A DNA stretch of 64,000 bases from Prolixibacteraceae bacterium (GCA_963675995.2 CAXXIY010000001.1:2106690-2170689), one strand, 5' to 3'. Shown: positions 33,472 through 62,996, counted from the first letter of the stretch. Notes: generated by a model from the letters alone, not told the origin. Numbers and translations are program-made.

Positions 33472-33517
33472 GTTGTCCTGTCAGGTTTCGAACCTGAACT
33501 CTTCTGATCCAGAATCA
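33472..33517 (-). repeat. att direct repeat, left copy (orphan 3' fragment of tRNA-Gln)
   Basis: 46/46 identical to 62951-62996. Similarity to the tRNA stops abruptly at 33518. A terminator-like hairpin (AACACCTACA..TGTAAGTGTT) lies just outside it. Confidence 0.85.
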
Positions 33518-33635
33518 TAAAAACGTGTTTTTCGCTATTTTTCACTGTTTTTCAAGAATTTGTTAATATGCTGGATTATAGCAATTAAATTGAATTTTAT
33601 TCTTCGTTATTTTACGCTGTTTATCGTTTAATTTC

Positions 33636-33665
33636 TATATTTGTGTGCAAATCGTGTGTGCAAAT
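33636..33665 (+). promoter_or_regulatory. Putative int promoter (-7 box TATATTTG) overlapping two GTGCAAAT direct repeats (candidate arm-type integrase sites)
   Basis: TATATTTG at 33636-33643 fits the Bacteroidota TAnnTTTG box, ~47 nt before the int ATG. GTGCAAAT occurs at 33645-33652 and 33658-33665. The same doublet occurs at 62880-62887 and 62891-62898. Confidence 0.4.
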
Positions 33666-33689
33666 ATAAAGAATTAAAATACCAAGACG

Positions 33690-34919
33690 ATGTTTAATTA
33701 TTCACTCAATGGAATCACTGTAGCGTCAATTCTTGATACCCGTCGAGCTACTAAAGACAATGTTTATCCTGTCAAAATCCGTATCACCTATAAGCGGGAC
33801 AGAAAATATTATTCTACAGGAAAGACTCTTTCCAAAGAGGATTGGGCTAATTTACCTAGCCAGAAAAGTAAAGTGTCTTCTCAGTTAAGAGATGATATCC
33901 AGAATTCATTTGATAAGTTAAAAGCTGCAATTAAATTTATAGAGGCTTCCGGTGATTTCTCTTTTGATGTATTGAATCACCGACTTGGCAATGCGGTTGG
34001 AGATTCAGTAAATAATGCATTCTTAGCCAAAATAGCTAATCTTAAAAATGAAGGTAGATCCGGTACCCAGATTTCTAATGAATGCGCTTTAAACAGCTTA
34101 CAAAAGTTTGGGGGTCAAAATATTCAATTCACAGATGTAACTATTGACTGGTTAAGACGCTATGAAAAATACATGATTAGTGAAGGTAATAGCTTTACAA
34201 CAATTGGTATGTATGTTAGAGCTTTAAGGTCCTTAATAAATGATGCAATAAAGGCAGGCTTATTAAAGCCGAGCAATTACCCATTTGGGAAGGATAAATA
34301 TGAAATTCCGACTGGTTCGGGTCGAAAATTGGCATTAACCCTCACCCAAATCAAGACTATTGTGGATTATTCAGATGGGAATCCTACTACTGACAGGTAT
34401 AAAAGCCTTTGGTTTTTTTCCTATTTGTGTAACGGCATTAATTTTATCGATATGATCAAGTTGAAGTACTCTAATATACACAATGGCGAGATTTCTTATT
34501 TGAGATCCAAAACGATTAGGACATCTAAGATTAAAAAGGAAATACATGCAATTGTTTCCCCAGAGATGAAGGCTATAATTAATCGCTGGGGTAATCCAGA
34601 TAGACGAGCAAATCAATATATTTTTCCGTTCCTAAACGGCAACGAAACTCCTATGGAAATTAAAGATAAAGCCAAAGATATTATTCATCGAACGAATGAT
34701 AAGTTAAAAACAATTGGAGAAACTATGGGAATTGATGGTTTGTCTACTTATTCTGCTCGACACAGTTTTGCCTCAGTCTTGAAACGATCTGGGGCCAATA
34801 TTTCATTTATTTCAGAATCCCTTGGGCATGCAGATCAGAAAACGACAGAAAATTATCTTGCAAGTTTTGAGCAAGATGAACGTATAAAAAATGCAGCACT
34901 TCTAACCAAGTTTGACTAA
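33690..34919 (+). CDS. int: Tyrosine site-specific integrase (Bacteroidota type with N-terminal Arm DNA-binding domain)
   Basis: N-terminus VYPVKIRITYKRDRKYYSTG is Arm-domain-like. The C-terminal catalytic region is STYSARHSFASVLKRSG...LGHADQKTTENYL (R, H-x-x-R, Y). Lies adjacent to the att repeat. Confidence 0.9.
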   Translation: MFNYSLNGITVASILDTRRATKDNVYPVKIRITYKRDRKYYSTGKTLSKEDWANLPSQKSKVSSQLRDDIQNSFDKLKAAIKFIEASGDFSFDVLNHRLGNAVGDSVNNAFLAKIANLKNEGRSGTQISNECALNSLQKFGGQNIQFTDVTIDWLRRYEKYMISEGNSFTTIGMYVRALRSLINDAIKAGLLKPSNYPFGKDKYEIPTGSGRKLALTLTQIKTIVDYSDGNPTTDRYKSLWFFSYLCNGINFIDMIKLKYSNIHNGEISYLRSKTIRTSKIKKEIHAIVSPEMKAIINRWGNPDRRANQYIFPFLNGNETPMEIKDKAKDIIHRTNDKLKTIGETMGIDGLSTYSARHSFASVLKRSGANISFISESLGHADQKTTENYLASFEQDERIKNAALLTKFD

Positions 34920-34924
34920 CCAAT

Positions 34925-35920
34925 ATGGAACATTATGAACTTTTAAGATCTATAGCTGGCGGTTGGTTATCTCCCCATCTTGCTATGGATGAAGATGTTT
35001 CTCCTCTATATTATCATTGTCAGAAATATAATATATTGGAGTATAAAGACTATATGTATTTTAAAGTCGATAAAAATTTCCTATTTGAATATCCACCGGA
35101 TATTTTAAATCCGGATGGTAATTATGAAAGGAAAATACTAAAAGATAAATCAGGAAATAACTGGTATCATCCTACAAGAAAAGCTTACTATTATTATGAA
35201 ATAATCGATGCTGAAAAGACGAAATTAATTCAACATTACAATTCGATTTATAACCGTAATATACCTGTCTATACAATAGATGGATTGGTACAAAAAGAAA
35301 TTCATCAACTTAGTAAAATCGCGAGAGATACAATGATTTATACGAGTACCCATATTAAAGATTTTCAGACCCTCAATTTATCAAACAGTAACCACTATGT
35401 TATTAGTCTCCTACAAGAGACAATTATAGATTTATTTCAAGAAATCTATAATATATTTGAAGGTTTAATAAATTTAAAAGTAATATCAAGAGAAAAATTT
35501 AAAGCTGAATATTTTGGAGAAAAGCCATATGAGTTAGTAAATCTGCTAGATAAAAACACCACGATTTACCTCAATCACCGTAATATATTAAAAAAAATTT
35601 GTAAGGAATTTAATTTTGATGTTTTTCAGTGTGGTGGGGAAAATGATTTTTGTGAGATATTTGATCTCAATAACCAAATGGAATATACGTTCAAGATTAA
35701 ACATAAGACAAAATTCTGCTACCTCCTTTATGAAATGTGGGAGAATAGAGATAATATTGAGCTCATCAACCAAAAATATCCCAATAGAGAATCTTTTATA
35801 AAACCCTTTCTTGAAAAGTATTCCTGTAGCTTTGGAACCTTTACTAATAAAGATGTGTTCCATAATACAAATGCTAAATATAAGTCCTTTAAAGAAAAAG
35901 TTGAAGCTATGTTCAAATAA
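34925..35920 (+). CDS. Hypothetical protein (331 aa), co-transcribed with int
   Basis: Starts 5 nt after the int stop. AT-rich and K/N/Y/I-rich. Followed by a strong terminator. No motif recognised. Confidence 0.45.
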   Translation: MEHYELLRSIAGGWLSPHLAMDEDVSPLYYHCQKYNILEYKDYMYFKVDKNFLFEYPPDILNPDGNYERKILKDKSGNNWYHPTRKAYYYYEIIDAEKTKLIQHYNSIYNRNIPVYTIDGLVQKEIHQLSKIARDTMIYTSTHIKDFQTLNLSNSNHYVISLLQETIIDLFQEIYNIFEGLINLKVISREKFKAEYFGEKPYELVNLLDKNTTIYLNHRNILKKICKEFNFDVFQCGGENDFCEIFDLNNQMEYTFKIKHKTKFCYLLYEMWENRDNIELINQKYPNRESFIKPFLEKYSCSFGTFTNKDVFHNTNAKYKSFKEKVEAMFK

Positions 35921-36089: not shown

Positions 36090-36452
36090 ATGGACGAATT
36101 GATTTTAGCTTTAATAACTGTCGTCAAAGAGAGGTTTGACTCCGCGATCAAAGAGGCTGTTTTTCAAGCCTTAGGTGTACAACAGGTGATTCCCACCTTA
36201 CAAGACAAGACTGATATAAATGGAGCGTGCGAGCATTTGGAGAAGCATGGATATAAAGTTCCAAAATCCACTCTGTATAAACTTACAAGAACCAATGATA
36301 TTCCATGTGGACGTATTGGTGATGGACGTAGGCTTATCTTTTCACGGATAGAATTGGAATCCTGGTTAGAGTCCCAGATTAAGCAAAAGCCTCGGTTCAA
36401 TGCATCCCTTGAGTTGGCAAAATCAGCACAACGTAAGATTAGAAAGGGATAA
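36090..36452 (+). CDS. Excisionase-family helix-turn-helix DNA-binding protein
   Basis: STLYKLTRTNDIPCGRIGDGRRLIFSRIELESWLE resembles the HTH_17/excisionase (MerR-like) signature. Sits at the head of a 4-gene block near int. Confidence 0.6.
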   Translation: MDELILALITVVKERFDSAIKEAVFQALGVQQVIPTLQDKTDINGACEHLEKHGYKVPKSTLYKLTRTNDIPCGRIGDGRRLIFSRIELESWLESQIKQKPRFNASLELAKSAQRKIRKG

Positions 36453-36454: not shown

Positions 36455-37234
36455 ATGGCTGTTCCACGTACAACCAAGATTCCTTATGAAATGTGCTTAG
36501 GTGCGCTTGTTTGCCGGCATGTTCGCCTGCTTCAGTTGTACGTGTATTTAAAATTACAGTGTAGCGGAAAAATCCGGATTGACAAAGAACTAATGGAGAA
36601 GATCCGGATTGACTTAGGATTAAAGTCAATTCGAACTATTACGGATTGCTTGAGGGAATTGCAAAAGAAAGGTTGGATCACTTATAGTAAAGCATCTGGA
36701 TTTTATTTTATCAAAGGATTTGACGAGATCAGAAAATTAAATGGTTTTTATCGTAGAGCCGGTGTTGAGTTCAGCATCGATGATATTAAACAATTCAAGG
36801 AATTTCTTACTGCCGTTATAATAGGCTCCTTGATACATACACAGAAGAGAAGGGCACAGGCCGTCGAGCTCAAACAGGGAAGCTCCAAGACCCCGGCCTG
36901 TGTGCTCTCTTCAAAATATTATCCTGTAGCAAATGAAGCCCTGGCAAGCATTCTTAATGTTTCAATATCCACGGCTTTTGAACTTAAGAAAGCTTCAAAA
37001 AAATGTGGATTCATAGCGATTAAGAAGAATCTACAAGTGCTGCCAGGGATAAGTCCAAATTTGTCAAGAGAGTTCAAGAAGTATGGGGACATACCAATTC
37101 ACCTAATCCGGTATTCAAATCATAAGATTTGCGTGCAAGGCCCTGATCTGTTGCGCTCTAAAATCCACTTTGCAAAAAGAAAGAAGATTGTAAATCCTTT
37201 GGATTCTTTGGGGATCCTTCCTAATGGACCATAG
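36455..37234 (+). CDS. Hypothetical protein with winged-helix-like segments (possible replication initiator/regulator)
   Basis: Starts 2 nt after the previous stop. CLRELQKKGWITYSK and ALASILNVSISTAFELKKASKKCGFI resemble wHTH segments. The functional call is speculative. Confidence 0.35.
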   Translation: MAVPRTTKIPYEMCLGALVCRHVRLLQLYVYLKLQCSGKIRIDKELMEKIRIDLGLKSIRTITDCLRELQKKGWITYSKASGFYFIKGFDEIRKLNGFYRRAGVEFSIDDIKQFKEFLTAVIIGSLIHTQKRRAQAVELKQGSSKTPACVLSSKYYPVANEALASILNVSISTAFELKKASKKCGFIAIKKNLQVLPGISPNLSREFKKYGDIPIHLIRYSNHKICVQGPDLLRSKIHFAKRKKIVNPLDSLGILPNGP

Positions 37235-37324
37235 TTATTTATAACATAATATTTATGGAAAAATATCGAAACATTAAAGAAGGGTTATTAAGGATATTTA
37301 AGAATTATCTAATAAGTAAACATA

Positions 37325-37738
37325 ATGAGTACTGTACGATTAAAAGAAAGAATAGAATTAAAAGGAAGTTGTAAAGGAACAACTGCAACTCTTATTGAGA
37401 GAACTGCTTCCAAAGCCCTTTATCAGCGGGATGATGGATACTGGGAAACCTTTCTGGTCAAAATTAATCCTGCCATGGTTTATGTCAAGGGGGAATGGAC
37501 CGCTACTGGTGAAACCAAAGAGGTATATCCTAATGACAATGCATTTGGTGTTTTTGCCTGGTGCGGGAAAGAAGAAAAGATCAGGAATTTTTATGAATCA
37601 TTATCTGAAAGTAGAAATGCCGATTATGCTAATGACGTATCTCGATTTTTCCGTAGATCTCCCGAAAGTAAGGCAATTGCTCCACTGAAAGAAAATAACG
37701 TTAAAAATCAGGAACAGTTTATTAATTCTTTTTTGTAA
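37325..37738 (+). CDS. Hypothetical protein (137 aa)
   Basis: ORF in the co-directional block. No motif recognised. The overlapping ORF 37395-37688 is judged spurious. Confidence 0.4.
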   Translation: MSTVRLKERIELKGSCKGTTATLIERTASKALYQRDDGYWETFLVKINPAMVYVKGEWTATGETKEVYPNDNAFGVFAWCGKEEKIRNFYESLSESRNADYANDVSRFFRRSPESKAIAPLKENNVKNQEQFINSFL

Positions 37739-37749: not shown

Positions 37750-38781
37750 ATGAGACAGAGTAAAATAAATGAAGATTTAAACTCGGCTTTAAATGAAACG
37801 AACACGTATGATGGTCTAAATGAAAAGCCGGTCATTCCCCAAAGACTTAAACGGAAAAGAAGCCGAATAAAATACTCCCCTTCATATATTGCTTTCGAGT
37901 GGCTTATAAAAACAGCAAATACTTATTGGCAATCTAACAACTTTGCCAAATACCTCCGTAACCTGTTTGGTGAGGACATTGCCTTAATAATTATCAACCA
38001 TTATTCGATTGGCACTTCAAAGGTTTGCTTAGGTGCGACCATCTTTTGGCATAGAGATAATTGGGGTGAAGTTAGGACAGGCAGGATCATTCAATTCAAT
38101 GAGGAAACAGGAAAAAAGACTAAAGTAAATGGTCCTGTAAATCAGTGGGTGCATAACTATTTAAACCAACCAAGTTATAATTATGTACCATGTTTTTTTG
38201 CAGAGAATCTAATAGAGAGATTCTCAAGTCCTGTCGCAATCGTCGATAATGAAAGAGCTGCATGCATTGCGGCTGCTTATATGCCAAAGTATACCTGGAT
38301 TGCATCTTGTGGCTTAAGAGAGTTAACCAGTAATAAATGTGCCGTGCTTAAGAATAGAAAAGTCGTTCTCTACGCTCCACTAGGAGGATATGATCTATGG
38401 AAGAAAGTTGCAGACAGAGAAAATTTTGAGATATCCGATTACCTTGAGAAAATTGCCACAGATGAAGAGCGCGTATCCAAACTTGACATTGCCAATTACC
38501 TCATAAGGTTTGATTCTCGAGAATTCAGAGCATATCTTGAAAACCCTATAAGACCACCGGAGCAACCATTTTATATGGTATATCCGATCGAACCAATTGG
38601 GAAATTCTGTCCTGACCATTTTATTCATGAAGATTCTGATAAGAAGTGGTGGAAATCGTTCAATGGTCAAGACGATAATTCACAACCAAAACCAAAACAA
38701 CGCGGTCATACCAAGGAGTTTCTTATGAAAAGATGCGCATGGAGCGATCCTAATAAGAATAGCGAAGGGAAAACTAAATAA
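37750..38781 (+). CDS. Hypothetical protein, possibly Toprim/primase-associated (DUF6371-like)
   Basis: Its position after the Xis-like/wHTH genes, plus a segment VAIVDNERAACIAAAYMPKYTWIASCG that resembles a Toprim acidic strand. Weak. Confidence 0.3.
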   Translation: MRQSKINEDLNSALNETNTYDGLNEKPVIPQRLKRKRSRIKYSPSYIAFEWLIKTANTYWQSNNFAKYLRNLFGEDIALIIINHYSIGTSKVCLGATIFWHRDNWGEVRTGRIIQFNEETGKKTKVNGPVNQWVHNYLNQPSYNYVPCFFAENLIERFSSPVAIVDNERAACIAAAYMPKYTWIASCGLRELTSNKCAVLKNRKVVLYAPLGGYDLWKKVADRENFEISDYLEKIATDEERVSKLDIANYLIRFDSREFRAYLENPIRPPEQPFYMVYPIEPIGKFCPDHFIHEDSDKKWWKSFNGQDDNSQPKPKQRGHTKEFLMKRCAWSDPNKNSEGKTK

Positions 38782-39965
38782 TGCAATGTAATAATTCAGA
38801 AATAATCAGGCAATGGCAATCATTCAAAGATATGCGTAAAGAACTTTAAATGTCAATTTAGTCCAGGCACTTATGTTCATGAAGAACCCTTTCTTGGGAA
38901 TGACGGAAAGTTCAAAGTAGGAAGATTAGGTTCTTTGTATTATGTTCCATCTAAGGATTATCATATCAAACGCAATCCTTGCGTGCCCATCAAAGATTTG
39001 CATAAGTTTAATCTTACTGATCCTGCGTTTTTAATGCAAAATTGCTCAGACCCACAATCTGAGAAAAACCTTGAAGAGAATTGGGTAAAGATTTTTGTAA
39101 GGACGAAAGTAATAATTCCTGAGAAGGCTTTCCTACCAGTCCTAAACAGTATAATTCATGATCCACTACTTCCCATAATGTTAGTCCTAATCTGTCTTCA
39201 ATTTCACCGAGTTTTTTGTAAAATTTTTTAAGAGGGAAAAGGTATAAAAAGTACTCGTAACTCATTCTTTTTTAACTACTAATAAGATGTAATTTTATCT
39301 ATGTCATAAGTATTAATAATATTCAACGATTGTTTTTAAACTGTCTCTGAACTTGTCGAAAGAGACTTTGAACACAATGTACAGTACTCGCCCAACCAAC
39401 ATAGTAGATGTTTCGCAGGAAAGATCCTAACAGTTCATCATATCTCGAATCAATCACCCTAAACATCCCTGACAACACCGCAACAGTCTTAGCAACTCAT
39501 ACACGTAAGACCACCTACCGCTACAACATCAAACTCTCCCAATGAAAGATTAAATCGGAAAATACTTATGAATGATCATTAAAACGAAACCGGTACAACT
39601 AAGCCGTATAATTCTATACTGAACGGCAAACCAATTCAAAATTGTGTGCTGCAAAAAGCCAAACCTTTTCTTCACGGAGGATACATACGATTTTGCCAGT
39701 TGTTCATATTTGTACATACACTTCGAATCAACCTACACTGAGAAATTGGATTATTGTCAAGTAATTTTAAGCTTAACTGTAAAGTGTAACCACTGCCCAT
39801 AATCTCTCTCTTAATCGTATGTACGTTTCCAAACCTATGTTTTAATTGTACATACCGTATTTGAGATATGAGTAGGAAGCTCCTATAACCTAAACCCTAA
39901 ATATTTAATTTTTATTGGCTTGCAAATTGCTAATTACAAATCCATTAGAGCCAAGTGGTATACTT

Positions 39966-40871
39966 ATGAATAATGACATTTATGACCGTATTACAAACTT
40001 GATTATCGAAAGGCTTCAAGCCGGCGTGGTCCCCTGGAAACAACCATGGTCTTGTGACTCTTTACCGAGAAATGGTATATCCATGAAACCTTATAGAGGG
40101 GTAAATCACTTTGTGCTTTTAAGCCTTCAAAATTCCAGCCCCTATTACTTCTCTTTTCAACAAGTTAGATCATTAGGAGGTAATGTTAGAAAAGGCGAAA
40201 AGAGTGTTCCAGTTGTATTCTGGAAAATGCTGGAGAAGGAAGAGCATCCCGGAGAATTGAAAAAAACTCCTTTCCTCAGGTATTACAACGTGTTTAACCT
40301 TTCGCAGACCGAAGGAATCGACGCGAGTAAGATTCCTCCAACAGAAATTCATGATCACGATTTTGATCCTATTACTAAGGCAGAGCAGCTGTTAGAAGAA
40401 TGGGAAGATTCTCCTAAAATGAAGTTCAATGAAAACCACGCCTATTACTCACCTGCTCAGGATCTAATCGGAATACCGAATCCAAGAACCTTCTTTAAGG
40501 ATGAACAATACTATTCTGTGTTGTACCATGAGATGATTCATTCAACTGGTCATACTAAACGACTGGGTCGCCACGACAAAATGAAAAATCTTCAATTCGG
40601 ATCTCATTCCTATAGTCAGGAGGAGCTTGTTGCAGAAATGGGTGCTGCATTCATATGCGGAATGACCGGTATAGAGCAGCATACAATCGAAAATAGTGCC
40701 TCTTACATCAAAAGCTGGATCAGGACCTTTAAAGATGATCCCAAAGTTCTGGTCATAGCTGCATCACAGGCTCAACGTGCAGTTGATTATATTCTTAATA
40801 ACCGTAAATCTGAAGAACCGGAACATATCCCAGGCGAGAGAGAGCTGATATTAGAGCCTTTCGAGGTTTGA
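39966..40871 (+). CDS. ardC: ArdC-like antirestriction protein (N-terminal ssDNA-binding domain + zincin metallopeptidase domain)
   Basis: ITNLIIERLQAGVVPWKQPW (ArdC N-domain) and the HEMIHSTGH zinc motif. The start is taken at the ATG at 39966 rather than the TTG at 39915. Confidence 0.85.
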   Translation: MNNDIYDRITNLIIERLQAGVVPWKQPWSCDSLPRNGISMKPYRGVNHFVLLSLQNSSPYYFSFQQVRSLGGNVRKGEKSVPVVFWKMLEKEEHPGELKKTPFLRYYNVFNLSQTEGIDASKIPPTEIHDHDFDPITKAEQLLEEWEDSPKMKFNENHAYYSPAQDLIGIPNPRTFFKDEQYYSVLYHEMIHSTGHTKRLGRHDKMKNLQFGSHSYSQEELVAEMGAAFICGMTGIEQHTIENSASYIKSWIRTFKDDPKVLVIAASQAQRAVDYILNNRKSEEPEHIPGERELILEPFEV

Positions 40872-40978
40872 TCAAGTATTCTTCATCCATTCAAAGAAGG
40901 TCGTCTGAACACCCTATTCAAGGCAATAACGACCTTCTATCACATCGTCTGTTAATGATCAATTAAAACTATTTCATC

Positions 40979-42318: not shown

Positions 42319-42341
42319 TCCGTAAGGCAGCGGTAAAGTAT

Positions 42342-53591: not shown

Positions 53592-55939
53592 GCTAATTTT
53601 TCCTGATTAAATAGTTCGTGTTCCAATTCCTGAAGGGCTTTGTCGTAGTTGGCTTTCCCTCCAAAGACCTGATTGATAATTTCCATTGGAGTACCCATTT
53701 CGCTGAAAGGTTTTAATTTCAGGATTTTGGTGTCTTCAATCGAAGTAATTCCTTTGTCGGCGTATTTGTCCAGCAGACTGTTTAAAATGGCTCTGGCCTG
53801 TTCGCCGTATTTGGTAAAATAATTTCTCTTTTTCACGTTATTTGCCCGCTCTTTTCGGGTCAGCGGTGGCTGATCGAAAGCGATGTGGCAAATTAAGTCA
53901 AAATCACCGTAATCTTTCCCGATTTCTTCCGCCAGATTTTCCAAAATGATGCCGTGTTCTTCCAGCATTTCAATAATCGCCTGCTTCTTTTTGGTCTTGT
54001 TCCACGATTTCAAAAAGTCGTTCAGTGTTGCAAACTCGGTCTGAACCTGTTTGCGTGTAAAGTCGCGGTACGACTCGGTGATCAATTGTCCGTTGTCGCC
54101 GTAATATTCAATTCGTTCGGCTACAATTCTCGCCGGAACACCACTGACATATACTTTCCGGCTTCCGGTTTGTTCTTCTTCATCCTCACCTTCGCCGTCA
54201 TCGTCCGGGTCTTCAGGATCGGGAGGCACAGGGTCGTCATCGTCACCGGGTTCATAAATCACTACCGGATCGCCATCAAAATCAGGATCGCGAAACAATT
54301 CGGTCGCCTTTTTGAAATCCATGATAGTAAAGAACATTTTGCCAAAATCTTCTTCAATGCGGGTTCCACGACCAATAATTTGTTTAAAAGTGGTCATCGA
54401 ACGGATGGTTTTATCCAGCACAATCACCTTACAGGTTTTGGCATCTACGCCTGTGGTCATCAGTTCCGAAGTGGTTGCAATTACCGGAAATTTACTTTCC
54501 GGGTCAATGAAATTATCCAGTTCAGCTTTCCCTTCCACACTGTCGCCTGTAATTCGCATCACGTATTTAGGGTTATCGGTAGCCAGTTTTCCGGCAGCGT
54601 TTACAATGGCAACGCGCATTCGTTCAGCATGGTCAATATCTTCGCAGAAAATAATTGTTTTTGAGAATGGGTCGGTGGCAAACAACAGTTTCATTACCCG
54701 CCCTGCCACCAGTTTAGTACGTTGATTCAGCACCAGAATCCGATCCATGTCTGCCTGATTGTAAGTGCGTTCTTCAATCTCCTGCCCTAAATCATCTTTC
54801 ATTCCGGGTGGAGGAGTCCAACCTTCAATGTCCTTGTCAATATCAATTCGGACTACTTTGTAGGGTGCCAGAAAACCATCCGCAATTCCTTGTTTCAGGC
54901 TGTAAGTATAAACCGGTTCGCCAAAGTAGGTAATGTTCGAAACGTATTTGGTTTCCTTTGGGGTGGCGGTCATACCAATTTGAATGGCATTCGAAAAATA
55001 TTCGAGTATTTCGCGCCAAGAAGCATCATCGGCAGCACTTCCGCGGTGACACTCATCAATCACAATCAGATCGAAAAAGTCAGGAGAAACATTTTTGAAA
55101 ATTTTATCGGCTTCATCGGGGCCGGTTATAGCCTGATATAAACCAAGGTAAATCTCATAAGACGGATCGATTTTCCGGTTCTTTATTTTGGTCATTACTG
55201 AACCGAATGGCTTGAAGTCGTTGATTAACGTTTGATCGGCCAAAATATTTCGGTCAACGAGGAATAAGGTTCTTTTAACCGCTTTGGCCTTCCACAATCG
55301 CCAAATAATTTGAAAAGTGGTATAGGTCTTACCGGTTCCGGTGGCCATTACGAGCAAAATCCTTTTCTCCCCGCGGGCAACGGCTTCAATGGTTCGGTTT
55401 ATTGCTTCCACCTGATAGTAGCGGGGTTCTTTACCCGAGCCATCGGTGTGAAATGGCTGAACTACCAATTTTTCATCTTCAGCCTTAATACCCCGGTACT
55501 GTTTGTATCGTGTCCAAAGTTCATATGGTGAAGGAAAAGCTTCTAACGGGAATTGGGTTTCTATATCATCGCCATCGGCCGGAATTTTATTGTGTGAAGC
55601 GAAAGCATCGCCATTTGAACTAAAAGCACTGGGAACTTCCAAAATATCAGCGTAACCCAAAGCTTGTTGCATTCCATGACTGACCGTGTGATTGTTGTCT
55701 TTGGCTTCAACAACAGCAAGCGGCACACCAGGTTCCCATTGAAGAACATAGTCGGCAAATTTTTTCTTCTTTTTGTTTCTGACTGACATATTGCCGCGCA
55801 CAATGACCGGGCCAGGTGTAAGCGTAACTTCACGCCTGATTTGTGTAGACGGTTCCCAGCCTGCATCTTTAATAGCGGGAGTGATATACAAATCGCAAAT
55901 GTCGATTTCGCTAAGTTCTTTTTTATTGATGTCGGTCAA
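53588..55939 (-). CDS. hsdR: Type I restriction endonuclease/translocase subunit (short, EcoAI/EcoEI-like size)
   Basis: N-terminal PD-(D/E)xK-like region (..VVEAKD..), Walker A MATGTGKT and DEAH-like box IVIDECHRGS. The 783-aa length and C-terminal region are reminiscent of type IB HsdR. Confidence 0.9.
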   Translation of the reverse strand: MTDINKKELSEIDICDLYITPAIKDAGWEPSTQIRREVTLTPGPVIVRGNMSVRNKKKKKFADYVLQWEPGVPLAVVEAKDNNHTVSHGMQQALGYADILEVPSAFSSNGDAFASHNKIPADGDDIETQFPLEAFPSPYELWTRYKQYRGIKAEDEKLVVQPFHTDGSGKEPRYYQVEAINRTIEAVARGEKRILLVMATGTGKTYTTFQIIWRLWKAKAVKRTLFLVDRNILADQTLINDFKPFGSVMTKIKNRKIDPSYEIYLGLYQAITGPDEADKIFKNVSPDFFDLIVIDECHRGSAADDASWREILEYFSNAIQIGMTATPKETKYVSNITYFGEPVYTYSLKQGIADGFLAPYKVVRIDIDKDIEGWTPPPGMKDDLGQEIEERTYNQADMDRILVLNQRTKLVAGRVMKLLFATDPFSKTIIFCEDIDHAERMRVAIVNAAGKLATDNPKYVMRITGDSVEGKAELDNFIDPESKFPVIATTSELMTTGVDAKTCKVIVLDKTIRSMTTFKQIIGRGTRIEEDFGKMFFTIMDFKKATELFRDPDFDGDPVVIYEPGDDDDPVPPDPEDPDDDGEGEDEEEQTGSRKVYVSGVPARIVAERIEYYGDNGQLITESYRDFTRKQVQTEFATLNDFLKSWNKTKKKQAIIEMLEEHGIILENLAEEIGKDYGDFDLICHIAFDQPPLTRKERANNVKKRNYFTKYGEQARAILNSLLDKYADKGITSIEDTKILKLKPFSEMGTPMEIINQVFGGKANYDKALQELEHELFNQEKLA

Positions 55940-56366: not shown

Positions 56367-57167
56367 ATGTGTAGAAAATTTGTGATAGTCAGCGAATTCG
56401 AAAAAATTGAAAGACGTTTTAACGTCTCCCTTAGTCCTAATATTGAACCTCTAGCGAAACATTATGCTGTTTCATCAGGCGATAAGTGTTATGTGATCAC
56501 ATGCGAAGATCCAAAGTTATTGCAGGAATTCACCTTCGGCATGACCCCCTTTTATGCTTCCGATCCAATGAATTTAATCACAGCCCGGGCCGAAGGCGAT
56601 AAAAACGGGAATAACGATCCCAATTATAACGGTTCCAGGTCCATTTTTCTTAAAACCCCCTTTAAAAAACCGATCTACTCACAACGTTGTCTGGTCATTG
56701 CCGATGCCTGGTATGAATGGACACCCCGTAAGAAACCCTTTCTATTTCACCTGATCAACAAAAACCGACCCTTCGCATTTGCAGGTATTTACGATTATTG
56801 GAAAAATCCGGATACCAACGAAATCACCACCTCTTTTTCGATCATAACCACGGTGGCAAATCCTTTGATTCAAAGTATAGGGATAAAGCGGTTGCCGGTA
56901 ATACTCTCCAAAATACACGAACAAGCGTGGATAAAATCGTCGAATCACTTATCCGATGTGCTGGTACTACTTAATCCCTATCCAGCCGAAGAGATCAGTT
57001 GTTACCCAGTGTCCGACAGGGTAAATTCACCAGGTGCAAATGACCCTTCACTACTAAATCCATTTGAGGAGAAACCACCGATTAATAGTAATACCACTTT
57101 TGTCCTCCGCAGCCATCGTCAGCCTAAACAGAAAGGCGATCCCGACAGATTATGTGTAGAAGTTTAG
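56367..57167 (+). CDS. SOS-response-associated peptidase (SRAP/YedK family), native C-terminus replaced by IS insertion
   Basis: Starts MCRKF (catalytic Cys2). The last four codons (CVEV) and the stop lie inside the IS481 left end. The pre-insertion reading continues after the IS as ..DRLWFKRN*. Confidence 0.75.
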   Translation: MCRKFVIVSEFEKIERRFNVSLSPNIEPLAKHYAVSSGDKCYVITCEDPKLLQEFTFGMTPFYASDPMNLITARAEGDKNGNNDPNYNGSRSIFLKTPFKKPIYSQRCLVIADAWYEWTPRKKPFLFHLINKNRPFAFAGIYDYWKNPDTNEITTSFSIITTVANPLIQSIGIKRLPVILSKIHEQAWIKSSNHLSDVLVLLNPYPAEEISCYPVSDRVNSPGANDPSLLNPFEEKPPINSNTTFVLRSHRQPKQKGDPDRLCVEV

Positions 57168-58498
57168 ACTTCGTCTGACAGTAGGGATATTTTTGAGTTA
57201 ATAATTCAATGCGTTTTTTAAGGCATCTTCTCCCGGAATGATATGCTGGATTTGGGGGCCATTAATGCCCCCGTGACCATTCCAGTCGGACAGGATATTC
57301 CTATCAGGTTGGTCGCCACCAGAGCCTGGTTCCGCTTCTCCTGTCAGGTATAAAGATACATCTTTTTGAAATTGAGTATCCAGCATTTTACTTTTTGTCA
57401 GGTGAAGTGTCTCATTCCATGTTTGCCACGGTGTTTTACCAAAACAGTACTTCCCGGAATGAGGACGTTCTTTGTTATAATGATCAAGCCAAAGATCCAC
57501 ATCTATCTGTAGATCAACTATGGAGCTGTAAATTTTTTTCCGAAAAGCTACCGCATAAAACTCTTCCTGCATCGTTTTGTGGAATCGTTCACAAATTCCA
57601 TTTGTCTGCGGATGCCTTGCTTTGGTTCGTGTATGATCGATGTCTTCTATTGCCAGGTATAATTGGTATTCATGATGTTCACGTGCTCCGCAATATTCGG
57701 TTCCCCGATCAGTTAAGATCCTTAGCAGTGGAATTTTACTTTCTTCATACATTGGCAATACCCTGTCATTAAGCATATCTGCGGCAACAAGGGCATTTTT
57801 ACGATCGTACAATTTAGCCTGGGCAACTTTAGTGTAAGTATCAATAAATGTTTGCTGATATATCCGACCAACACCTTTTATAGTGCCCACATAGTAAGTG
57901 TCTTGTGCACCGAGGTATCCTGGATGTTGCGTTTCTATCTCACCTTGTGCAAACTTTTCTTCCTTGGCTTTTTCAAGGGCTACAACCTGAGCTTCAGTCA
58001 AGACCAATCCATCCTGAGCAGCCCGTTTTTCAAGCAATTTAAGCCTTTTCTGGAAAGTTTCTACACCATTACGGAGCCAAACACAACGCACTCCTGCAGG
58101 GGAAATAAAAACACCTTTCTTCTTCAATTCGTTCGAGGCACGTTGTTGTCCATAAGCCGGAAAATCAAAGGCAATCTGTTTAACCTGATCTTCAATGGCC
58201 TCTTCAATGCGGTTTTTAAGTACTGGTTTCCTGCGTGAAACCTCATGAAGTGCTAATTCTCCTCCTTTTTCATACAGCTCTCTAAAACGGTAAAAGCTAT
58301 CACGACTGTAACCGAAGATTTTACAGGCTTGTGAAACGTTACCTAATTGCTCTGACAAATTGAGCAATCCTAACTTGGTTTTGATTAATTTTACTTCTGT
58401 ATTCATTTCTGACAGTTTTAGTGGATTAAACTTCTTTTTGAATGCAATTACAAAGTTAGTTTAATCCCTGACTGTCAGATTAAGTCGCAACTATTACA
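57155..58498 (-). mobile_element. IS481-family insertion sequence, copy 2 (1344 bp) with 7-bp target-site duplication
   Basis: Same ends as copy 1. GATTATG is present at 57148-57154 and at 58499-58505. Confidence 0.9.
57198..58406 (-). CDS. IS481-family DDE transposase (identical protein to 47173-48381)
   Basis: The 402-aa translation is identical to copy 1. Confidence 0.85.
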   Translation of the reverse strand: MNTEVKLIKTKLGLLNLSEQLGNVSQACKIFGYSRDSFYRFRELYEKGGELALHEVSRRKPVLKNRIEEAIEDQVKQIAFDFPAYGQQRASNELKKKGVFISPAGVRCVWLRNGVETFQKRLKLLEKRAAQDGLVLTEAQVVALEKAKEEKFAQGEIETQHPGYLGAQDTYYVGTIKGVGRIYQQTFIDTYTKVAQAKLYDRKNALVAADMLNDRVLPMYEESKIPLLRILTDRGTEYCGAREHHEYQLYLAIEDIDHTRTKARHPQTNGICERFHKTMQEEFYAVAFRKKIYSSIVDLQIDVDLWLDHYNKERPHSGKYCFGKTPWQTWNETLHLTKSKMLDTQFQKDVSLYLTGEAEPGSGGDQPDRNILSDWNGHGGINGPQIQHIIPGEDALKNALNY

Positions 58499-58631: not shown

Positions 58632-59111
58632 TTATGGAGACTCAAATCCAGTTAGTTTAGCTTCAATTACAGGAATAATTGTCTCACAATACCTAATTGC
58701 TATCAGCCTTTTATTTTCGGTATATTCATCTGCAATACGATATTCACCTTCTTTCTCAATTCGATCAGCTGCTTCTCTAAGCAAATATGCCTTAAACTGT
58801 TCTGGCGTTAGAACTTCTTTCATCGCTTCATTTATCTTATTTTGGGTACTTAACATTTCTTGGTTTAACCTCCACATTTTGGAAACCAATGATTGTTGGG
58901 GAGACAAATTCGCTTTGTATTTATCATTGGCTCGTTCAAGTTGAGTCTTCCAGAATTTACCTCTTTGAACTTTTTCTCTGAGCTTATTAACAAAACCTTC
59001 AACCTCTCCTTTGCTGTTTATTACAATTCCTTCTGGATTTGTGAAAATATGAAAATAGCAATCAATATAGAAACGATGATGATGATCTTTGTCTTGAGCA
59101 TGGTGTTTCAA
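58632..59111 (-). CDS. Hypothetical protein (159 aa), last gene of the TPR operon
   Basis: Lies 12 nt downstream of the TPR lipoprotein gene on the same strand. Helical, K/E-rich. No motif recognised. Confidence 0.4.
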   Translation of the reverse strand: MKHHAQDKDHHHRFYIDCYFHIFTNPEGIVINSKGEVEGFVNKLREKVQRGKFWKTQLERANDKYKANLSPQQSLVSKMWRLNQEMLSTQNKINEAMKEVLTPEQFKAYLLREAADRIEKEGEYRIADEYTENKRLIAIRYCETIIPVIEAKLTGFESP

Positions 59112-59123
59112 TTATTGTGGATA

Positions 59124-60302
59124 TTAATTACAATATTGTTTGATCCTTTCGTAGGCTTCTTTTGACCCCAACTCACCCGCTTTGCTCAAATCCAAACATC
59201 CATTCTCCCTTTGGCCTATAGAAATCAATACCATTCCTCTAGAAAAATATGCTGAGCCATTTTTCTGATCAATTTCAATTGCTTTATCAAAATCGAGTAA
59301 TGCACCTTTCAAATCTTTTAGGTTGATCTTTACTCGACCTCTCAAATAAAATGCATTTTGAGAATCCCAAGAACATGTTTTAATAATTAGATTAAGATCT
59401 ATTAACGCGCCGCGATAGTCTTTCAAATTTAATTTTGAAATAGCTCTTTCCTCAATTGACCCCTGCCACAAAGTAGCTATTTCGTATCGACCTAAGGCAT
59501 CTATTGTTGGTGGATATCTATTAATTACTTCTGTAAAATCTGCAATTGCCCCGAAATTATCGTCTAAGTATGCTTTCGCAGAACCTCTAAATGAAAGTGC
59601 TGTGTAATAAATTGTTTCGCGGTCATCCTTATTTTCAATATTATCCGCTGAGTCTATTGACTTAGTAAAATCAGAAATTGCACCTGAATAATCTTCAAGT
59701 CCAGTTTTTGCTTGAGCTCTATTAGTATAAGCTTCTGCATACTTAGGATTAATTTCAATTGCTTTATCAAAATTTGAAATTGCTTCTTTGTACTCTTTAT
59801 TCATATAATAAATATCCAAACCTCTTTTATTATAAGCTTCTGCGTAGCTTTTGTCTATCTCAATGGCTTTTGAATAATCCGATATTGCTCCTGAGAGATC
59901 TTGACTTTTGTCTTTTGCCATCCCTCTTTGGTAATAAGCTAATGCAAATTTAGGGTTGATTTTAATAGCCTTATCAAAGTAAGTAATACTCCCCCAAACA
60001 TCCATTGCCATTCCTCTATTGCAATATGGCTCTGCAAAGAGCGTATCAGTTTTTATGGCTTTATCAAAATCATCAATTGCTCCTTTTTTGTCATCAACTG
60101 CTCTTTTTGCAAGCCCCCTTTGATTATAAGCTGCGGTATAATTCGAATCCGCATCTATTGCTTTTGTAAAGTCAATAATTGCTCCCTTGTAATCCTTGTT
60201 TTGTTGCTTTGCAAGACCGCTTGTGTAATATTCCTTTCCTTTTTGTCCGCAGCCAGAAGATATTAAAAGCACTACAATAATTAGATTAAAAATATTTTTC
60301 AT
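59124..60302 (-). CDS. Tetratricopeptide-repeat lipoprotein
   Basis: The preferred start is the Met at 60302 (MKNIFNLIIVVLLISSGC lipobox). About 10 TPR units of the type GAI.DF.KAIEI.P.YA.AY.NRG follow. Confidence 0.7.
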   Translation of the reverse strand: MKNIFNLIIVVLLISSGCGQKGKEYYTSGLAKQQNKDYKGAIIDFTKAIDADSNYTAAYNQRGLAKRAVDDKKGAIDDFDKAIKTDTLFAEPYCNRGMAMDVWGSITYFDKAIKINPKFALAYYQRGMAKDKSQDLSGAISDYSKAIEIDKSYAEAYNKRGLDIYYMNKEYKEAISNFDKAIEINPKYAEAYTNRAQAKTGLEDYSGAISDFTKSIDSADNIENKDDRETIYYTALSFRGSAKAYLDDNFGAIADFTEVINRYPPTIDALGRYEIATLWQGSIEERAISKLNLKDYRGALIDLNLIIKTCSWDSQNAFYLRGRVKINLKDLKGALLDFDKAIEIDQKNGSAYFSRGMVLISIGQRENGCLDLSKAGELGSKEAYERIKQYCN

Positions 60303-60373
60303 AGTTTTAAATTGAGAATGCATTTTTATGAATCTGTAATTATGAATGTTCATTAAAATAAATCCGAATTGCA

Positions 60374-60787
60374 TCAGAGGGGGTCTATAAAACCTAATTC
60401 TGCCGCTATATTAAAATTGATATATGCGTTTTCTTGCTGATCTAATTGAATATTAGAAAGCCCTCTATTATAAAAAGCTTCTCCAAAGTCAGGTTTAAGC
60501 TTGATTGCCTCATCAAGATCGGTTATAGCTCCTTCAAAGTCTTTTATCTCTATTTTTGCCTTACCTCTGTATGCATAAGCTTCTTCACAATATGGCTCAA
60601 TTTTTAGGGCGTCAGTGCAGTCTTGAATCGCACCCAAATAATCTTTAATTCTGATCTTCATTAACGCTCGGGAAGTATATGCAATGTGAAAGTTAGGATT
60701 AACCCTAATAGTGTGTGTAAAGTCATTAATTGCACCCTCGAGATCGTCCTCTTCTTCTTTGTTGTATGCTCTTTCAAAATATACCAT
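60374..60787 (-). CDS. TPR protein segment (probably the C-terminal part of a frameshifted larger TPR gene)
   Basis: TPR units. The reading frame stays open upstream to 60886 and encodes an acidic DEDDDYDYDY stretch with no good start. Confidence 0.5.
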   Translation of the reverse strand: MVYFERAYNKEEEDDLEGAINDFTHTIRVNPNFHIAYTSRALMKIRIKDYLGAIQDCTDALKIEPYCEEAYAYRGKAKIEIKDFEGAITDLDEAIKLKPDFGEAFYNRGLSNIQLDQQENAYINFNIAAELGFIDPL

Positions 60788-61671
60788 CGAACAATAATCA
60801 TAATCATAATCATCATCCTCATCCTTAATGTGTTCATCCCGATTATAAAATTCAATATAGTGGTCAAATCGGCCAGAGCACCCAGATTATCATTGAGAGT
60901 CTTTTTTATTGAAGATCTGTGTAAATATATTTCTGCATCATCCGGCCAGATATTTAAAGCATTATCGTAGTCAGCTATTGCACCAGTAAAATCATTTAGG
61001 CTATTTTTAATATAAACCATATTAAAATAGGCTCTTGCATTAAATGTGTCGATTTGAACAATTTTTGAATAGTCAGCAATAGCACCGACATAATCATGAG
61101 CACTTTCTTTTATCTGAGCCCTTTCTTCATATGCTTTTATGTGATTAGGGTATTCTTTAATTGCATTTGTGTAATCCTTAATCCTGGCAATGTTGTAATG
61201 CACATCTTCGTATATTGGATCATCTATGTTGGTGGCTTTAAAATTGGGGTTAATCTCCAAAGCCTTTAAAATGTCCGATACAGCTTCGGAATTCAGACCA
61301 CTATTGTACCTGGCAACTGATCTGAAATAATAAGCGTATGAGTCCTCAGGATACAACTCCAAAGATTTTGATAAATCATCTATGGCTCCGGAAAAGTCAT
61401 GAAGCTTTAATTTTGTTGTTCCTCGATTAAACCACGCAATATCATCTGTTGGATCCAATTCAAGGGCTTTGGAATATTCTGCAATAGCTTTAAGATAATC
61501 ATGTGAAAGAATTAATCCGTCACATTCAGGTAGGTATTCGTTATTAGGCATTGGGTTGAAGTCGAGCATTAAATATATATTGTGTGATTTAGGGTATATT
61601 AAGCTAGTGGGAACCACACAAAAAGGGCGTGGAACCGTATCATTATCCGCCTCTGAGGTACCGCCAAGCAC
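60661..61671 (-). CDS. TPR protein (N-terminal part; the 3' ~60 codons are out-of-frame read-through)
   Basis: TPR units run through ..LNDNLGALADLTTIL. The translation then turns into implausible sequence (MRMMIMIMIIV...) while overlapping the next ORF by 127 nt. The true start is probably an internal Met (~61569). Confidence 0.5.
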   Translation of the reverse strand: MLGGTSEADNDTVPRPFCVVPTSLIYPKSHNIYLMLDFNPMPNNEYLPECDGLILSHDYLKAIAEYSKALELDPTDDIAWFNRGTTKLKLHDFSGAIDDLSKSLELYPEDSYAYYFRSVARYNSGLNSEAVSDILKALEINPNFKATNIDDPIYEDVHYNIARIKDYTNAIKEYPNHIKAYEERAQIKESAHDYVGAIADYSKIVQIDTFNARAYFNMVYIKNSLNDFTGAIADYDNALNIWPDDAEIYLHRSSIKKTLNDNLGALADLTTILNFIIGMNTLRMRMMIMIMIIVRWYILKEHTTKKKRTISRVQLMTLHTLLGLILTFTLHILPER

Positions 61672-62875
61672 CCGTCATGCAAATAAGAACAGCCCACGCC
61701 GTGACGTGAGCGTTTTCTTATTATTCATGCATGACTGTTGAAATTTGGCGGTTTTCAGAAGCAGGAACAAAAAGCTAACGCTTCGATAATATTTTAGTCT
61801 TCTTTTACTTTTATTTGACCATATGGTTTTAATTATTGTAAGTAATGATATTTTCGGTTTGAATTAAAATGAATTTCGATCTAATAGATGATTAATATTG
61901 ATTACCTTTTTTAGGAATGACTTAAATGATACAGATTTATGCGAGATTATTCTATTATTCATTAAGTTTTTACTTGTAAGATCACGGCAGTCAAATTTAG
62001 TGTTTCTTTTTCATTAAACTATGATTATAATACATGTATTGAAAAATAATCAAATATGTTTTGTTATGGGTTATTCACCCTAATACAAAAGTATTATCAA
62101 CCAGTTATTTCTTTTACAGGCTATTTCTGATAAGACTATGACAGTTTGGGAAATCAGCACTTTTGCTTTCAAGTGGCACTATTGTCCATTTGGAGGGCGA
62201 TTAATAGAAATTTCGCGATAGGTACTAATCAAAAACAAATTTTTCCCTTATGTTCTCTATTTGATTAAAAGATTGGATCCATTTTGCTTTTTTAAACCAA
62301 ATTTCAATCTGCCGGTTCTTTTTTTGAAGACATGCAAAAATCCCCGCCCCTCATGCTTCGGGGCTTGCACGGTCTTTTTGCATGAAGTCTGTTGAGATTG
62401 TCCAGAAGGCCATTTTATAGGTTGGCTACCGGATCATTGTATCCGCTAAATTTACATAATCGACCTTATAAAACAAAACAAAGCTTCTTCTCTCAGAAAG
62501 ATGTCTTATAAGGTGATTATGTAAAATTAGCTACTGTAGCTTAATTTGGTTCTCAGCTTTGAAGGACTTTTGCTCTCTTTTTTAACCTTAACCCACAAAA
62601 TCCCCACCACCCTTTCAATGGTGCAGGAAAATGCATTGCTAATCCGGGCAATGATCAAGAGACCGATTTCGGAAGTCCTGCGAAAGTACTCCCAAAGAAG
62701 CTTGACGGAATATTAATTCAAATCCTCAATCACAACCTTGATCTGGTTGCCCTGGCAAAGAAAGGGTTGTTTTCCTGCTGTTGTAAACCCCATTAGGCTT
62801 TAAAAGTGTTTGCCTTACATGGGTTTGATAAAGAGCAACTTACTTTATGCTGTCAATGTGTGTCCCCTGAAAAAG

Positions 62876-62898
62876 TTGTGTGCAAATTATGTGCAAAT
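62876..62898 (+). promoter_or_regulatory. GTGCAAAT doublet near the right island end (candidate arm-type integrase binding sites)
   Basis: TTGTGTGCAAAT-TA-TGTGCAAAT, same orientation and near-identical to 33641-33665. Lies 53 bp from the att core. Confidence 0.35.
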
Positions 62899-62950
62899 TG
62901 ACAAAAAAATGGTGATTACTTAATGTAAGTAATCACCTTATTAATAGATT

Positions 62951-62996
62951 GTTGTCCTGTCAGGTTTCGAACCTGAACTCTTCTGATCCAGAATCA
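62951..62996 (-). repeat. att direct repeat, right copy (within the intact tRNA-Gln)
   Basis: 46/46 identical to 33472-33517. Confidence 0.85.

Follow-up and report, generated by a model that had tools for sequence, protein, structure and literature searches.

A stretch of 64,000 nucleotides from a Prolixibacteraceae bacterium (GCA_963675995.2, CAXXIY010000001.1:2106690-2170689; hereafter the window) holds an island of 29.5 kb that lies at a tRNA-Gln(CUG) gene and is bordered by two copies of a repeat, here called the attachment (att) repeats (Table 1). As stated in a preliminary description made from the sequence alone, the two copies are identical at 46 of 46 positions, which was found both by direct reading and with a repeat finder; they are spaced 29,479 bp from start to start. 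The right copy forms the 3' part of the intact tRNA gene recognised by ARAGORN and Rfam and comprises its last 46 nt (45 nt by the Rfam start), namely the anticodon loop, all of the tRNA sequence 3' of the loop and, on the 5' side of the anticodon stem, 3 nt. The left copy is an orphan fragment at which no tRNA gene is called. One copy within an intact tRNA gene as its 3' part, with the other left as a fragment, is the arrangement that marks tRNA islands. A search with the att 45-mer allowing up to three mismatches returned the two att positions and no other place in the 64-kb window, so the repeat is not a dispersed one, and none of 100 shuffled sequences contained any match to it.

Each junction is accompanied by a terminator. 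On the chromosomal side of the left junction, beside the orphan fragment, the 12-pair hairpin and T-run that had been taken for the original terminator of the tRNA-Gln gene do have that form, and the same sequence is found unchanged in a sister strain (L016, see below). A second hairpin terminator, just inside the right repeat, now ends the rebuilt tRNA-Gln(CUG). Judging from this layout, both the tRNA 3' half and the replacement terminator were evidently brought by the island. Since the origin of these two parts in the island is hard to explain otherwise, it is likely that a circular element bearing attP integrated here. In a related element from another metagenome, L002 (ENA ERZ21831265 ctg81007l), the terminator 3' of a different tRNA (9735-9790, AAAACACCTACA...TGTAAGTGTTTTGATTCTGAG) is strikingly like the window terminator at 33428-33470, a likeness that hints at a terminator type common in this bacterial group.

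The tyrosine integrase gene begins 173 bp inside the left repeat, as first described, and is full length. Arm-binding, core-binding and catalytic domains are all present, as in the IntCTnDOT subgroup, and the C-terminal RHSF..LGH..ENY box can be aligned with XerA and IntI4. The catalytic residues of the family, R272, R357, H380 and Y389, are retained, as an alignment with 118 non-identical homologues shows. Tyr353 replaces the first His, but this is conserved family-wide and is therefore not a lesion. The presumed canonical site of Arg I is Asn in the window integrase and in all homologues inspected, and the conserved R272 (R-x-K-T), a candidate for the alternative first Arg, lies downstream of this presumed site. 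In the IntCTnDOT subgroup, which includes CTnDOT and NBU1, the first catalytic Arg may occupy the canonical position or one that lies further downstream (PMC8138268). The substitutions R238K and D239S were considered as a loss of the catalytic Arg and rejected as such, since an alternative Arg I lies downstream of the canonical site and R272 is present (PMC8138268).

Two further genes appear to belong to the recombination module. ORF331 (open reading frame 331) follows the integrase gene directly; its homologues are known only beside related integrases (as in L002), and it travels with the integrase type and not with the backbone seen in a second related element, L013. It has no Pfam, NCBIfam or PHROG match, and its helical AlphaFold2 (AF2) model (pLDDT 71) found no fold match in the PDB (best E = 1.7) and no capsid-like match. 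The helix-turn-helix (HTH) protein of the HTH_17 family is 40% identical to the product of the same-position gene of a prophage-like element (L011) and is probably, from its family membership, the excisionase (Xis) or recombination directionality factor.

The motif TGTGCAAAT occurs in exactly four exact copies in the 64 kb, as two tandem pairs on the same strand, each just inside an end of the island; one-mismatch variants are scattered at chance level. Five independent related elements (L002, L003/L005, L008, L009/L010 and L011/L012) have the same doubled motif 25-45 bp before the start of the integrase gene, and we infer that the pairs are candidate arm-type integrase sites. The earlier proposal of a tRNA-targeted integrative island is thus supported by the tRNA-derived repeats, both terminators, the full-length integrase, the HTH_17 gene and candidate arm-type motifs that occur at both ends only.

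Table 1. Features of the island and its borders (window coordinates)
Feature	Position	Strand	Evidence and remarks
Native intrinsic terminator of the tRNA-Gln gene	33431-33462	(-)	12-pair stem, then TTTGTTTTTG; chromosomal side of left junction
Left att repeat, orphan fragment with the last 46 nt of tRNA-Gln(CUG)	33472-33517	(-)	46/46 with right copy
Tandem TGTGCAAAT x2, 13-bp spacing	33644-33665	(+)	33644/33657; 127-148 bp inside left repeat; overlaps int promoter region
Tyrosine integrase, IntCTnDOT type	33690-34919	(+)	Pfam Arm-DNA-bind_5 (PF17293), Phage_int_SAM_5 (PF13102), Phage_integrase (PF00589)
ORF331, integrase-linked accessory protein	34925-35920	(+)	Starts 5 bp after int
HTH_17/excisionase-family protein	36090-36452	(+)	Pfam HTH_17 6.8e-8; weak TIGR01764 excisionase and PHROG 66 matches
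ORF259 and ORF137, conserved backbone genes	36455-37738	(+)	34% and 64% identical to syntenic L013 genes; weak winged-HTH-type matches only
DUF6371 DnaG-fold primase-like protein (predicted)	37750-38781	(+)	Pfam DUF6371 4.7e-43; C-terminally truncated
Decayed segment	38782-39914		Short ORFs only; in L013 here: primase 3' end, 224-aa gene, 215-aa (-) gene
ArdC, RadC, DUF6573	39915-41940	(+)	Pfam ArdcN and MPTase-PolyVal, RadC, DUF6573; anti-restriction/'leading-region'-type genes
Four small conserved backbone ORFs	41956-43582	(+)	120, 66, 102 and 128 aa; ORF list
Non-coding stretch	43627-44360		Two ~141-bp tandem units (43627-43914) and L013-conserved block (~43990-44360) with GGAATATTxTT repeats
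Relic with the 5' end of a second PDC-M03B gene and the 3' end of hsdS	44403-44764	(-)	86% and 72% DNA identity to 49056-49193 and 50213-50255; tblastn
RosmerTA-like pair	44973-46576	(+)	RmrA-type HTH and M78 peptidase, 44973-46082; PIN protein, 46046-46576
IS481-like copy 1	47130-48473	(-)	1344 bp, 1 mismatch to copy 2; TGT..ACA inverted ends; no target duplication
PDC-M03B (HIRAN-like) and PDC-M03A (HipA-like kinase)	48520-50201	(-)	PADLOC 8.3e-27 and 7.7e-57; weak Pfam HIRAN, HipA_C
Type I restriction-modification operon hsdR-hsdM-hsdS, complete	50240-55939	(-)	Pfam Methylase_S x2, N6_Mtase and HsdM_N, ResIII and EcoEI_R_C
SRAP (YedK-like) protein	56367-57167	(+)	Pfam SRAP 2.9e-39; last codons from IS copy 2 (IS start 57155)
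IS481-like copy 2	57155-58498	(-)	7-bp GATTATG duplication; clips SRAP 3' end
159-aa ORF, TPR lipoprotein (59124-60374), split TPR gene (60374-61671)	58632-61671	(-)	Pfam TPR families; internal 71-nt repeats
Tandem TGTGCAAAT x2, 11-bp spacing	62879-62898	(+)	62879/62890; 53-72 bp inside right repeat
Island-borne terminator hairpin	62911-62937	(-)	Terminator scan; 12-pair stem, then ATTTTTTTGT
Intact tRNA-Gln(CUG)	62951-63024	(-)	ARAGORN; Rfam tRNA 65.3 bits; 62951-62996 is the right att repeat
tRNA-Gln(UUG)	63224-63297	(-)	ARAGORN; Rfam tRNA 62.6 bits; 85% similar to tRNA-Gln(CUG)

The integrase has more than 4,000 homologues at E < 1e-30, the closest non-identical one being 68% identical, and those whose contexts were examined are 58-68% identical. 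Wherever the contexts examined include upstream DNA, the integrase gene adjoins an orphan 3' piece of a tRNA gene, and a terminator hairpin precedes this piece. Widely different elements carry these related integrases: a mobilizable element with DnaB, MobC, a relaxase and type I restriction-modification (R-M) genes (L003/L005), an element with a backbone like that of the window (L002, integrase 66% identical), a polysaccharide-utilisation island (L008), a Tc-toxin island (L009/L010) and a prophage-like element that lies in tRNA-Gln and has terminase and capsid genes (L011/L012). The fragment in L011/L012 is the 3' half of another host's tRNA-Gln, with three differences of which two, in the T stem, are compensatory; its end coincides to the nucleotide with that of the window repeat, ...CAGAATCA. 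This means that the crossover boundary is common to two independent elements.

Relatives of the host were sought with the VirJ-like protein of the left flank in species-representative genomes and in metagenomes of the Joint Genome Institute (JGI). In L001 (92% amino acid identity) and in L006 and L007 (84%), synteny is lost at window position ~33200, about 270 bp before the att repeat, and the tRNA is absent there, so these genomes are uninformative on the presence of the island. The sister strain L016 (Logan contig ERR12015701_29092) is 99.62% identical over 10.9 kb (window 22604-33485) and is unrelated to the window from 14 nt inside the left repeat onward; the 1.6 kb past the divergence contain AbiEii-like and IS4-like transposase fragments and neither a tRNA nor an integrase. 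The proteins of the two regions are likewise distributed differently. All nine flank proteins that were checked have relatives of at least 90% identity elsewhere (on a 1.12 Mb contig, on a 16 kb contig and in the L001 genome, by the cluster tables), whereas 15 island proteins form singleton clusters from the source contig (3.12 Mb) only, with no protein of at least 90% identity elsewhere in the collection. The singletons include Int, ORF331, HTH_17, ORF259, DUF6371, ArdC, RadC, DUF6573, the 102-aa and 128-aa proteins, hsdS, hsdM and SRAP; the exceptions are PDC-M03A, with one JGI relative, and the insertion sequence (IS) transposase, found on 8 contigs. The island is thus polymorphic in presence among close relatives and is strain-specific, and the segment is not carried by all relatives; its presence in all of them would have argued against the preliminary description. 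At the divergence point in L016 (1628-1650), the junction GTTGTCCTG-A-CAGGACAAC is a perfect 19-nt palindrome in which the 5' and 3' acceptor-stem halves of tRNA-Gln directly abut the native terminator; it could be the mark of a different island with an att core at the 3' end, a deletion scar or an assembly artefact.

Behind the integrase lies an ordered backbone, Int-ORF331-HTH_17-ORF259-ORF137-DUF6371-ArdC-RadC-DUF6573 and four small ORFs, which is syntenic with L013 from a metagenome (ENA ERZ19041759 scaffold_5162) at 34-78% amino acid identity except for the integrase pair. The genes shared with L013 in the window's order are those of ORF259, ORF137, DUF6371, ArdC, RadC, DUF6573 and the 102-aa and 128-aa proteins; ArdC, RadC and DUF6573 are 63-76% identical and the two small proteins 72% and 78%. 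The true start of ArdC is probably at 39966. The integrase of L013 is unrelated to that of the window (24% identity), and in L013 the DUF6965, 224-aa and 215-aa genes are intact. L002 shares Int, ORF331, HTH_17, DUF6371, RadC and the tetratricopeptide repeat (TPR) gene with the window, and differs in an AAA_25 helicase-like gene and in a tRNA fragment with a CAT-anticodon-like loop. Past the last conserved gene, the block at ~43990-44360 aligns with L013 12060-12560 and is the only candidate that we can offer for an origin of transfer (oriT) or another origin. A permissive Rfam search of 43500-45000 and 61600-63000 gave no credible match except the known tRNA-Gln (62952-63000). The tandem units before the block are 85% identical to each other and absent from L013; each contains a short CGTATGTACG/CGTACATACG inverted repeat, and their DNA folding is unremarkable.

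The DUF6371 protein is predicted to have the DnaG/T7-primase fold: in a Foldseek search with its AF2 model (pLDDT 80, core >90), the top 37 PDB matches were all DnaG, T7 gp4 or Twinkle primase domains. The island thus has the primase-family protein of Bacteroidota mobilizable transposons, though truncated and with degenerate Toprim residues. Sequence searches of the PDB with ORF331, ORF259 and DUF6371 gave noise, and weak actin matches were disregarded. Homologues of DUF6371 have Zn-ribbon or zf-CHC2 N-termini and a DUF6965 C-terminus. The window gene lacks the ~90-aa DUF6965 domain of a 50%-identical homologue, and the domain is absent downstream in all frames. Losses of the type E166D, D210P and D249N at family-invariant columns are common to the protein and its two nearest relatives, while G151A, P209A and W93C, also at invariant columns, are unique to the window. 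In the sub-branch associated with the ArdC-RadC backbone (window, P0122 and P0123), IVESEKT has become IVDNERA/IVDSEET and FPDLNG has become YAPLGG/YPSLGG, with loss of the Toprim acidic residues, which suggests that this sub-branch has a non-catalytic role. The gene is followed by the decayed segment, where an 83-aa remnant (39014-39265, minus strand) is 62% identical by tblastn to the N-terminus of the L013 215-aa protein and the L013 224-aa gene is absent. In Tn4555 and in an element of Bacteroides finegoldii, the position of this segment is occupied by a relaxase gene. DUF6371 homologues are also encoded by L020 (MT836828.1), L021 (MT837912.1) and other unannotated records of 6-13 kb from human faeces that are labelled 'Bacteriophage sp.'. 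The ORFs of L020 (443, 378, 124, 389, 364 and 478 aa in series, the 364-aa one being the DUF6371 match) resemble an NBU-type transposon by layout, only the DUF6371 match having been checked. If such records come from particle preparations, elements of this kind may occur in virus-like-particle fractions.

No relaxase, type IV secretion system (T4SS), capsid or terminase gene was found with Pfam in any ORF of at least 60 aa or with NCBIfam and PHROGs in the unannotated ORFs. This bears out what had been reported from the sequence, and the proposed search for a cryptic Mob/relaxase or capsid fold with profile models returned nothing from the three collections. Searches by tblastn with the Mob protein of Tn4555, the relaxase and MobC of the B. 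finegoldii element and the relaxase and MobC of L003 gave no match in the window. The window ORFs accordingly include neither the relaxase of its own that a canonical Bacteroidota mobilizable transposon or integrative mobilizable element (IME) carries (NBU1, NBU2, Tn4555, MTnPi) nor, by the Pfam scan, the T4SS, coupling protein and relaxase genes of an integrative and conjugative element or conjugative transposon; capsid, terminase, portal and packaging-hijack genes of a prophage or satellite are also missing (Pfam; PHROGs for the unannotated ORFs). Pfam revealed no cryptic relaxase or capsid among the unannotated proteins of the sibling elements, and the absence of a relaxase may therefore be a trait of the lineage, beyond this deletion alone. 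The caution of the preliminary description on the transfer route stands, given the missing relaxase and packaging genes and the clear signs of decay.

The right part of the island carries cargo. All of the kinds of accessory gene first listed in the island are present, from HTH_17, ArdC and RadC to the type I R-M operon, toxin-like modules, IS copies and TPR proteins. In addition to the matches in Table 1, the RosmerTA-like pair has Pfam HTH_3, Peptidase_M78 and PIN domains and PADLOC matches to RmrA (2.5e-44) and PDC-S70, and the hsd operon has PADLOC matches to Specificity_I, MTase_I and REase_I. The PDC-M03A/B genes, downstream of hsdS, form a candidate defence pair. Between the halves of the relic at 44403-44764 the kinase gene is missing; the relic points to an R-M/defence module that was present earlier or has recombined. 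The IS481-like transposase has Pfam HTH_29 and rve_3 domains. The two IS copies are direct repeats of each other, and the segment between them holds the PDC-M03 pair, the type I R-M operon and SRAP; a composite transposon was considered and is unsupported, there being no duplication common to the outer flanks and copy 2 having its own 7-bp duplication. The lack of a duplication at copy 1 suggests an adjacent deletion or an IS-mediated rearrangement. The TPR gene at 60374-61671 (minus strand) is read as two overlapping ORFs of 137 and 336 aa, probably through a frameshift, and contains an (ATAATC)x4 microsatellite at 60794-60817.

Of the flanks, which had been described as ordinary chromosomal genes, the left one bears this out, with an ABC transporter fusion, an outer membrane protein beta-barrel, melibiase-like enzymes and the VirJ-like hydrolase; on the right, the window extends only 976 bp past tRNA-Gln(CUG), including the second tRNA-Gln, and the statement holds for the left side. 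A second variable region, unrelated to the island, was observed in the left flank: the 16 kb at 14344-30230 (glycoside-hydrolase-like, melibiase and ABC-transporter genes) are replaced in the related Prolixibacteraceae genome L001 (12863-18693) by 5.8 kb with a single 1845-aa ORF, and both sides of the block are ~88-90% identical to L001.

Among known systems, the NBU-like mobilizable transposons of Bacteroides are one of the closest. The integrase of NBU1 has been placed in the IntCTnDOT subgroup (PMC8138268), and a tRNA 3' end has been described as the specific site of integration (PMC4755523). Integration at a tRNA 3' end by an integrase of this subgroup, as in NBU1, NBU2 and NBU-like elements, is shared by the window island, as are the order of MTnBf8 (att repeat, int, small accessory/excisionase genes, primase-family gene; PMC13597742) and the variable cargo downstream. 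The NBU-like MTnBf8 has AAA, Toprim primase and mobN1 genes (PMC13597742), whereas the window island has no MobN1-type relaxase and no AAA ATPase gene, and its primase-like gene is truncated. It is also larger (29.5 kb versus 10-16 kb), targets tRNA-Gln and not tRNA-Leu or tRNA-Ser, and resides in an environmental Prolixibacteraceae-like bacterium, NBU1 having been compared by its description. Tn4555 encodes TnpA, an integrase, TnpC, an excisionase, an AAA ATPase and a DUF6371 protein (PMC13183296). The last is homologous to that of the window (28% identity over 246 aa, E = 3e-27) and the integrase and excisionase module is shared, but TnpA targeting, low site specificity, the AAA ATPase and the mobilization protein have no counterpart in the window island. 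In the circular 10-kb form of Tn4555 the mobilization protein gene directly follows the DUF6371 gene, and the B. finegoldii element has DUF3987, DUF6371, MobC and a relaxase. The likeness of Int, the Xis-like protein, DUF6371, ArdC and RadC to Tn4555, the B. finegoldii element and MTnBf8 implies that the backbone is of the Bacteroidota mobilizable-transposon type. Relaxase-free IMEs such as MGIVflInd1 and the SGI1 type are known in Proteobacteria and Firmicutes and transfer by mimicking the oriT of a helper (PMC5704250). They share with the window island an integrase/directionality-factor module with cargo and no relaxase, and the 2017 review describes them only outside Bacteroidota (PMC5704250). 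The 64-kb window contains no helper element.

We consider it highly probable that the island was integrated site-specifically and is of the Bacteroidota mobilizable transposon/IME type. In the mechanism that we propose, a circular form whose attP carries a 46-bp copy of the 3' half of tRNA-Gln(CUG) would recombine with the chromosomal tRNA gene through a crossover in or beside the anticodon loop, catalysed by the CTnDOT/NBU-type integrase of the island. Binding of the integrase would be to core sites within the anticodon stem-loop and, through its N-terminal arm domain, to the doubled TGTGCAAAT inside each end. The sequence shows that on integration the tRNA was rebuilt from island DNA and received the island-borne terminator, and that the original 3' half and terminator were left at the far end beside int. 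Excision would require Int and the HTH_17 excisionase-like protein, perhaps with ORF331. We conclude that the island arrived by horizontal transfer and may have kept the ability to excise; any transfer at present would need outside help or an oriT that has escaped recognition, if transfer can occur at all. For the host it now appears, from its gene content, to serve as a defence island with the type I R-M system, the PDC-M03 kinase pair and the RosmerTA-like pair.

Several observations weigh against this interpretation. The empty site that had been put forward as a check was not obtained: L001, L006, L007 and L016 offered no clean empty attB, and no attP junction was found. In the sister strain L016 the site holds other accessory DNA and, of the tRNA end, just 14 nt. 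Given its overlap with a promoter-like element (TAnnTTTG), the left TGTGCAAAT pair could also be an operator of int. The integrase has the unique substitutions L84I, Y130N, R238K and D239S at columns that are 100% invariant in the 118 homologues, so its activity is not assured. The island has no relaxase and no recognisable oriT, and a relaxase is also absent from the available DNA of L013, L002 and L014. The term mobilizable is therefore an analogy and not a demonstrated property.

The same findings bear on the alternatives. It is possible, if doubtful, that the island is a fixed fossil that integrated as proposed but can no longer excise, its repeats being scars. The truncated and mutated primase-like gene with its deleted neighbourhood, the unique integrase substitutions, the two IS insertions, the split TPR gene and the relic R-M fragment would all fit such a state, and NBU1 excision requires orf2, orf3, prmN1, oriT and part of mob besides int and xis (PMC5704250). 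Against this, the 46-bp repeats have kept 100% identity, none of the int, ORF331 and HTH_17 ORFs is shortened, the catalytic residues and arm motifs are intact, and the absence of the island from a strain that is 99.6% identical means that its acquisition or loss is recent. That the att copies do not bound one unit, an int-primase-ArdC backbone (33.5-44 kb) having joined an older, unrelated defence/TPR island (44-63 kb), seems quite improbable. The similarity to L013 does extend only to window ~44317, within the coverage of that 12.9-kb contig, the Int and ORF331 module has been exchanged in comparison with L013, the IS copies and the relic R-M fragment are signs of internal rearrangement, and within the island the GC content ranges between 0.31 and 0.47. 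Yet there is no internal tRNA-Gln-like fragment even with three mismatches allowed, the arm-type motif at the far right ties that end to this integrase, the TPR gene is also found inside the related element L002, and a conserved backbone followed by variable cargo is the normal structure of such elements.

P4-like and PICI (phage-inducible chromosomal island) satellites and tycheposons combine a tRNA-targeting tyrosine integrase, an AlpA/excisionase-type HTH protein, a primase-type gene and defence or niche cargo, and have no transfer machinery of their own. The layout of int, AlpA-like HTH_17, primase and defence cargo in the window recalls the P4/PICI type, the same integrase clade serves the prophage-like L011/L012 with its terminase and capsid genes in tRNA-Gln, and DUF6371 homologues occur in the faecal 'Bacteriophage sp.' contigs and in the primase/helicase of a crAss-like phage. 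That the island is a phage satellite or a degraded prophage and moves in capsids instead of by conjugation is still very hard to credit, since no capsid, terminase, portal, capsid-remodelling or packaging-redirecting gene is present (Pfam; PHROGs for the unannotated ORFs), the ArdC and RadC genes are of a kind typically found on DNA that is transferred by conjugation and point to conjugative single-stranded DNA entry, and the faecal contig L020 is laid out like an ordinary NBU-type transposon, with the 478-aa ORF downstream of DUF6371. A chance or duplicative repeat that arose without site-specific recombination is effectively refuted. Nothing but the nearby duplication of tRNA genes, of which the second tRNA-Gln is an example, speaks for it; the shuffles without a match, the extent of the repeat from the anticodon stem to the tRNA 3' end, the adjacent integrase and the same boundary in the independent element L011/L012 speak against it.

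A site-specifically integrated element of mobilizable-transposon type remains the reading that we prefer, and the island is of a known kind: tRNA-integrated, IntCTnDOT-type, NBU/Tn4555-like and with defence genes, in which the lack of a relaxase is unusual but not unprecedented and internal decay is clear. A further proposal, which we regard as unlikely, is that the window island, L013, L002 and L014 represent an undescribed relaxase-free, NBU/Tn4555-like Bacteroidota lineage, in which the DUF6371 protein of the window and L013 would now be a structural or excision factor and transfer would occur by oriT-only hijack of a conjugative transposon (candidate 43990-44360) or by another route. If true, these would be the first 'MGI-type' IMEs in Bacteroidota.

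The understanding of how such islands work is unchanged by this example. Its value for annotation lies in the precise borders of the island, the candidate arm sites and the predicted DnaG-type primase fold for DUF6371. The CTnDOT/NBU-type integrase clade at tRNA anticodon-loop sites serves mobilizable elements, prophages, polysaccharide-utilisation islands and toxin islands, and the window provides a clean case of strain-specific horizontal acquisition, in which three defence systems together with anti-restriction genes entered the genome of an environmental member of the Bacteroidota.

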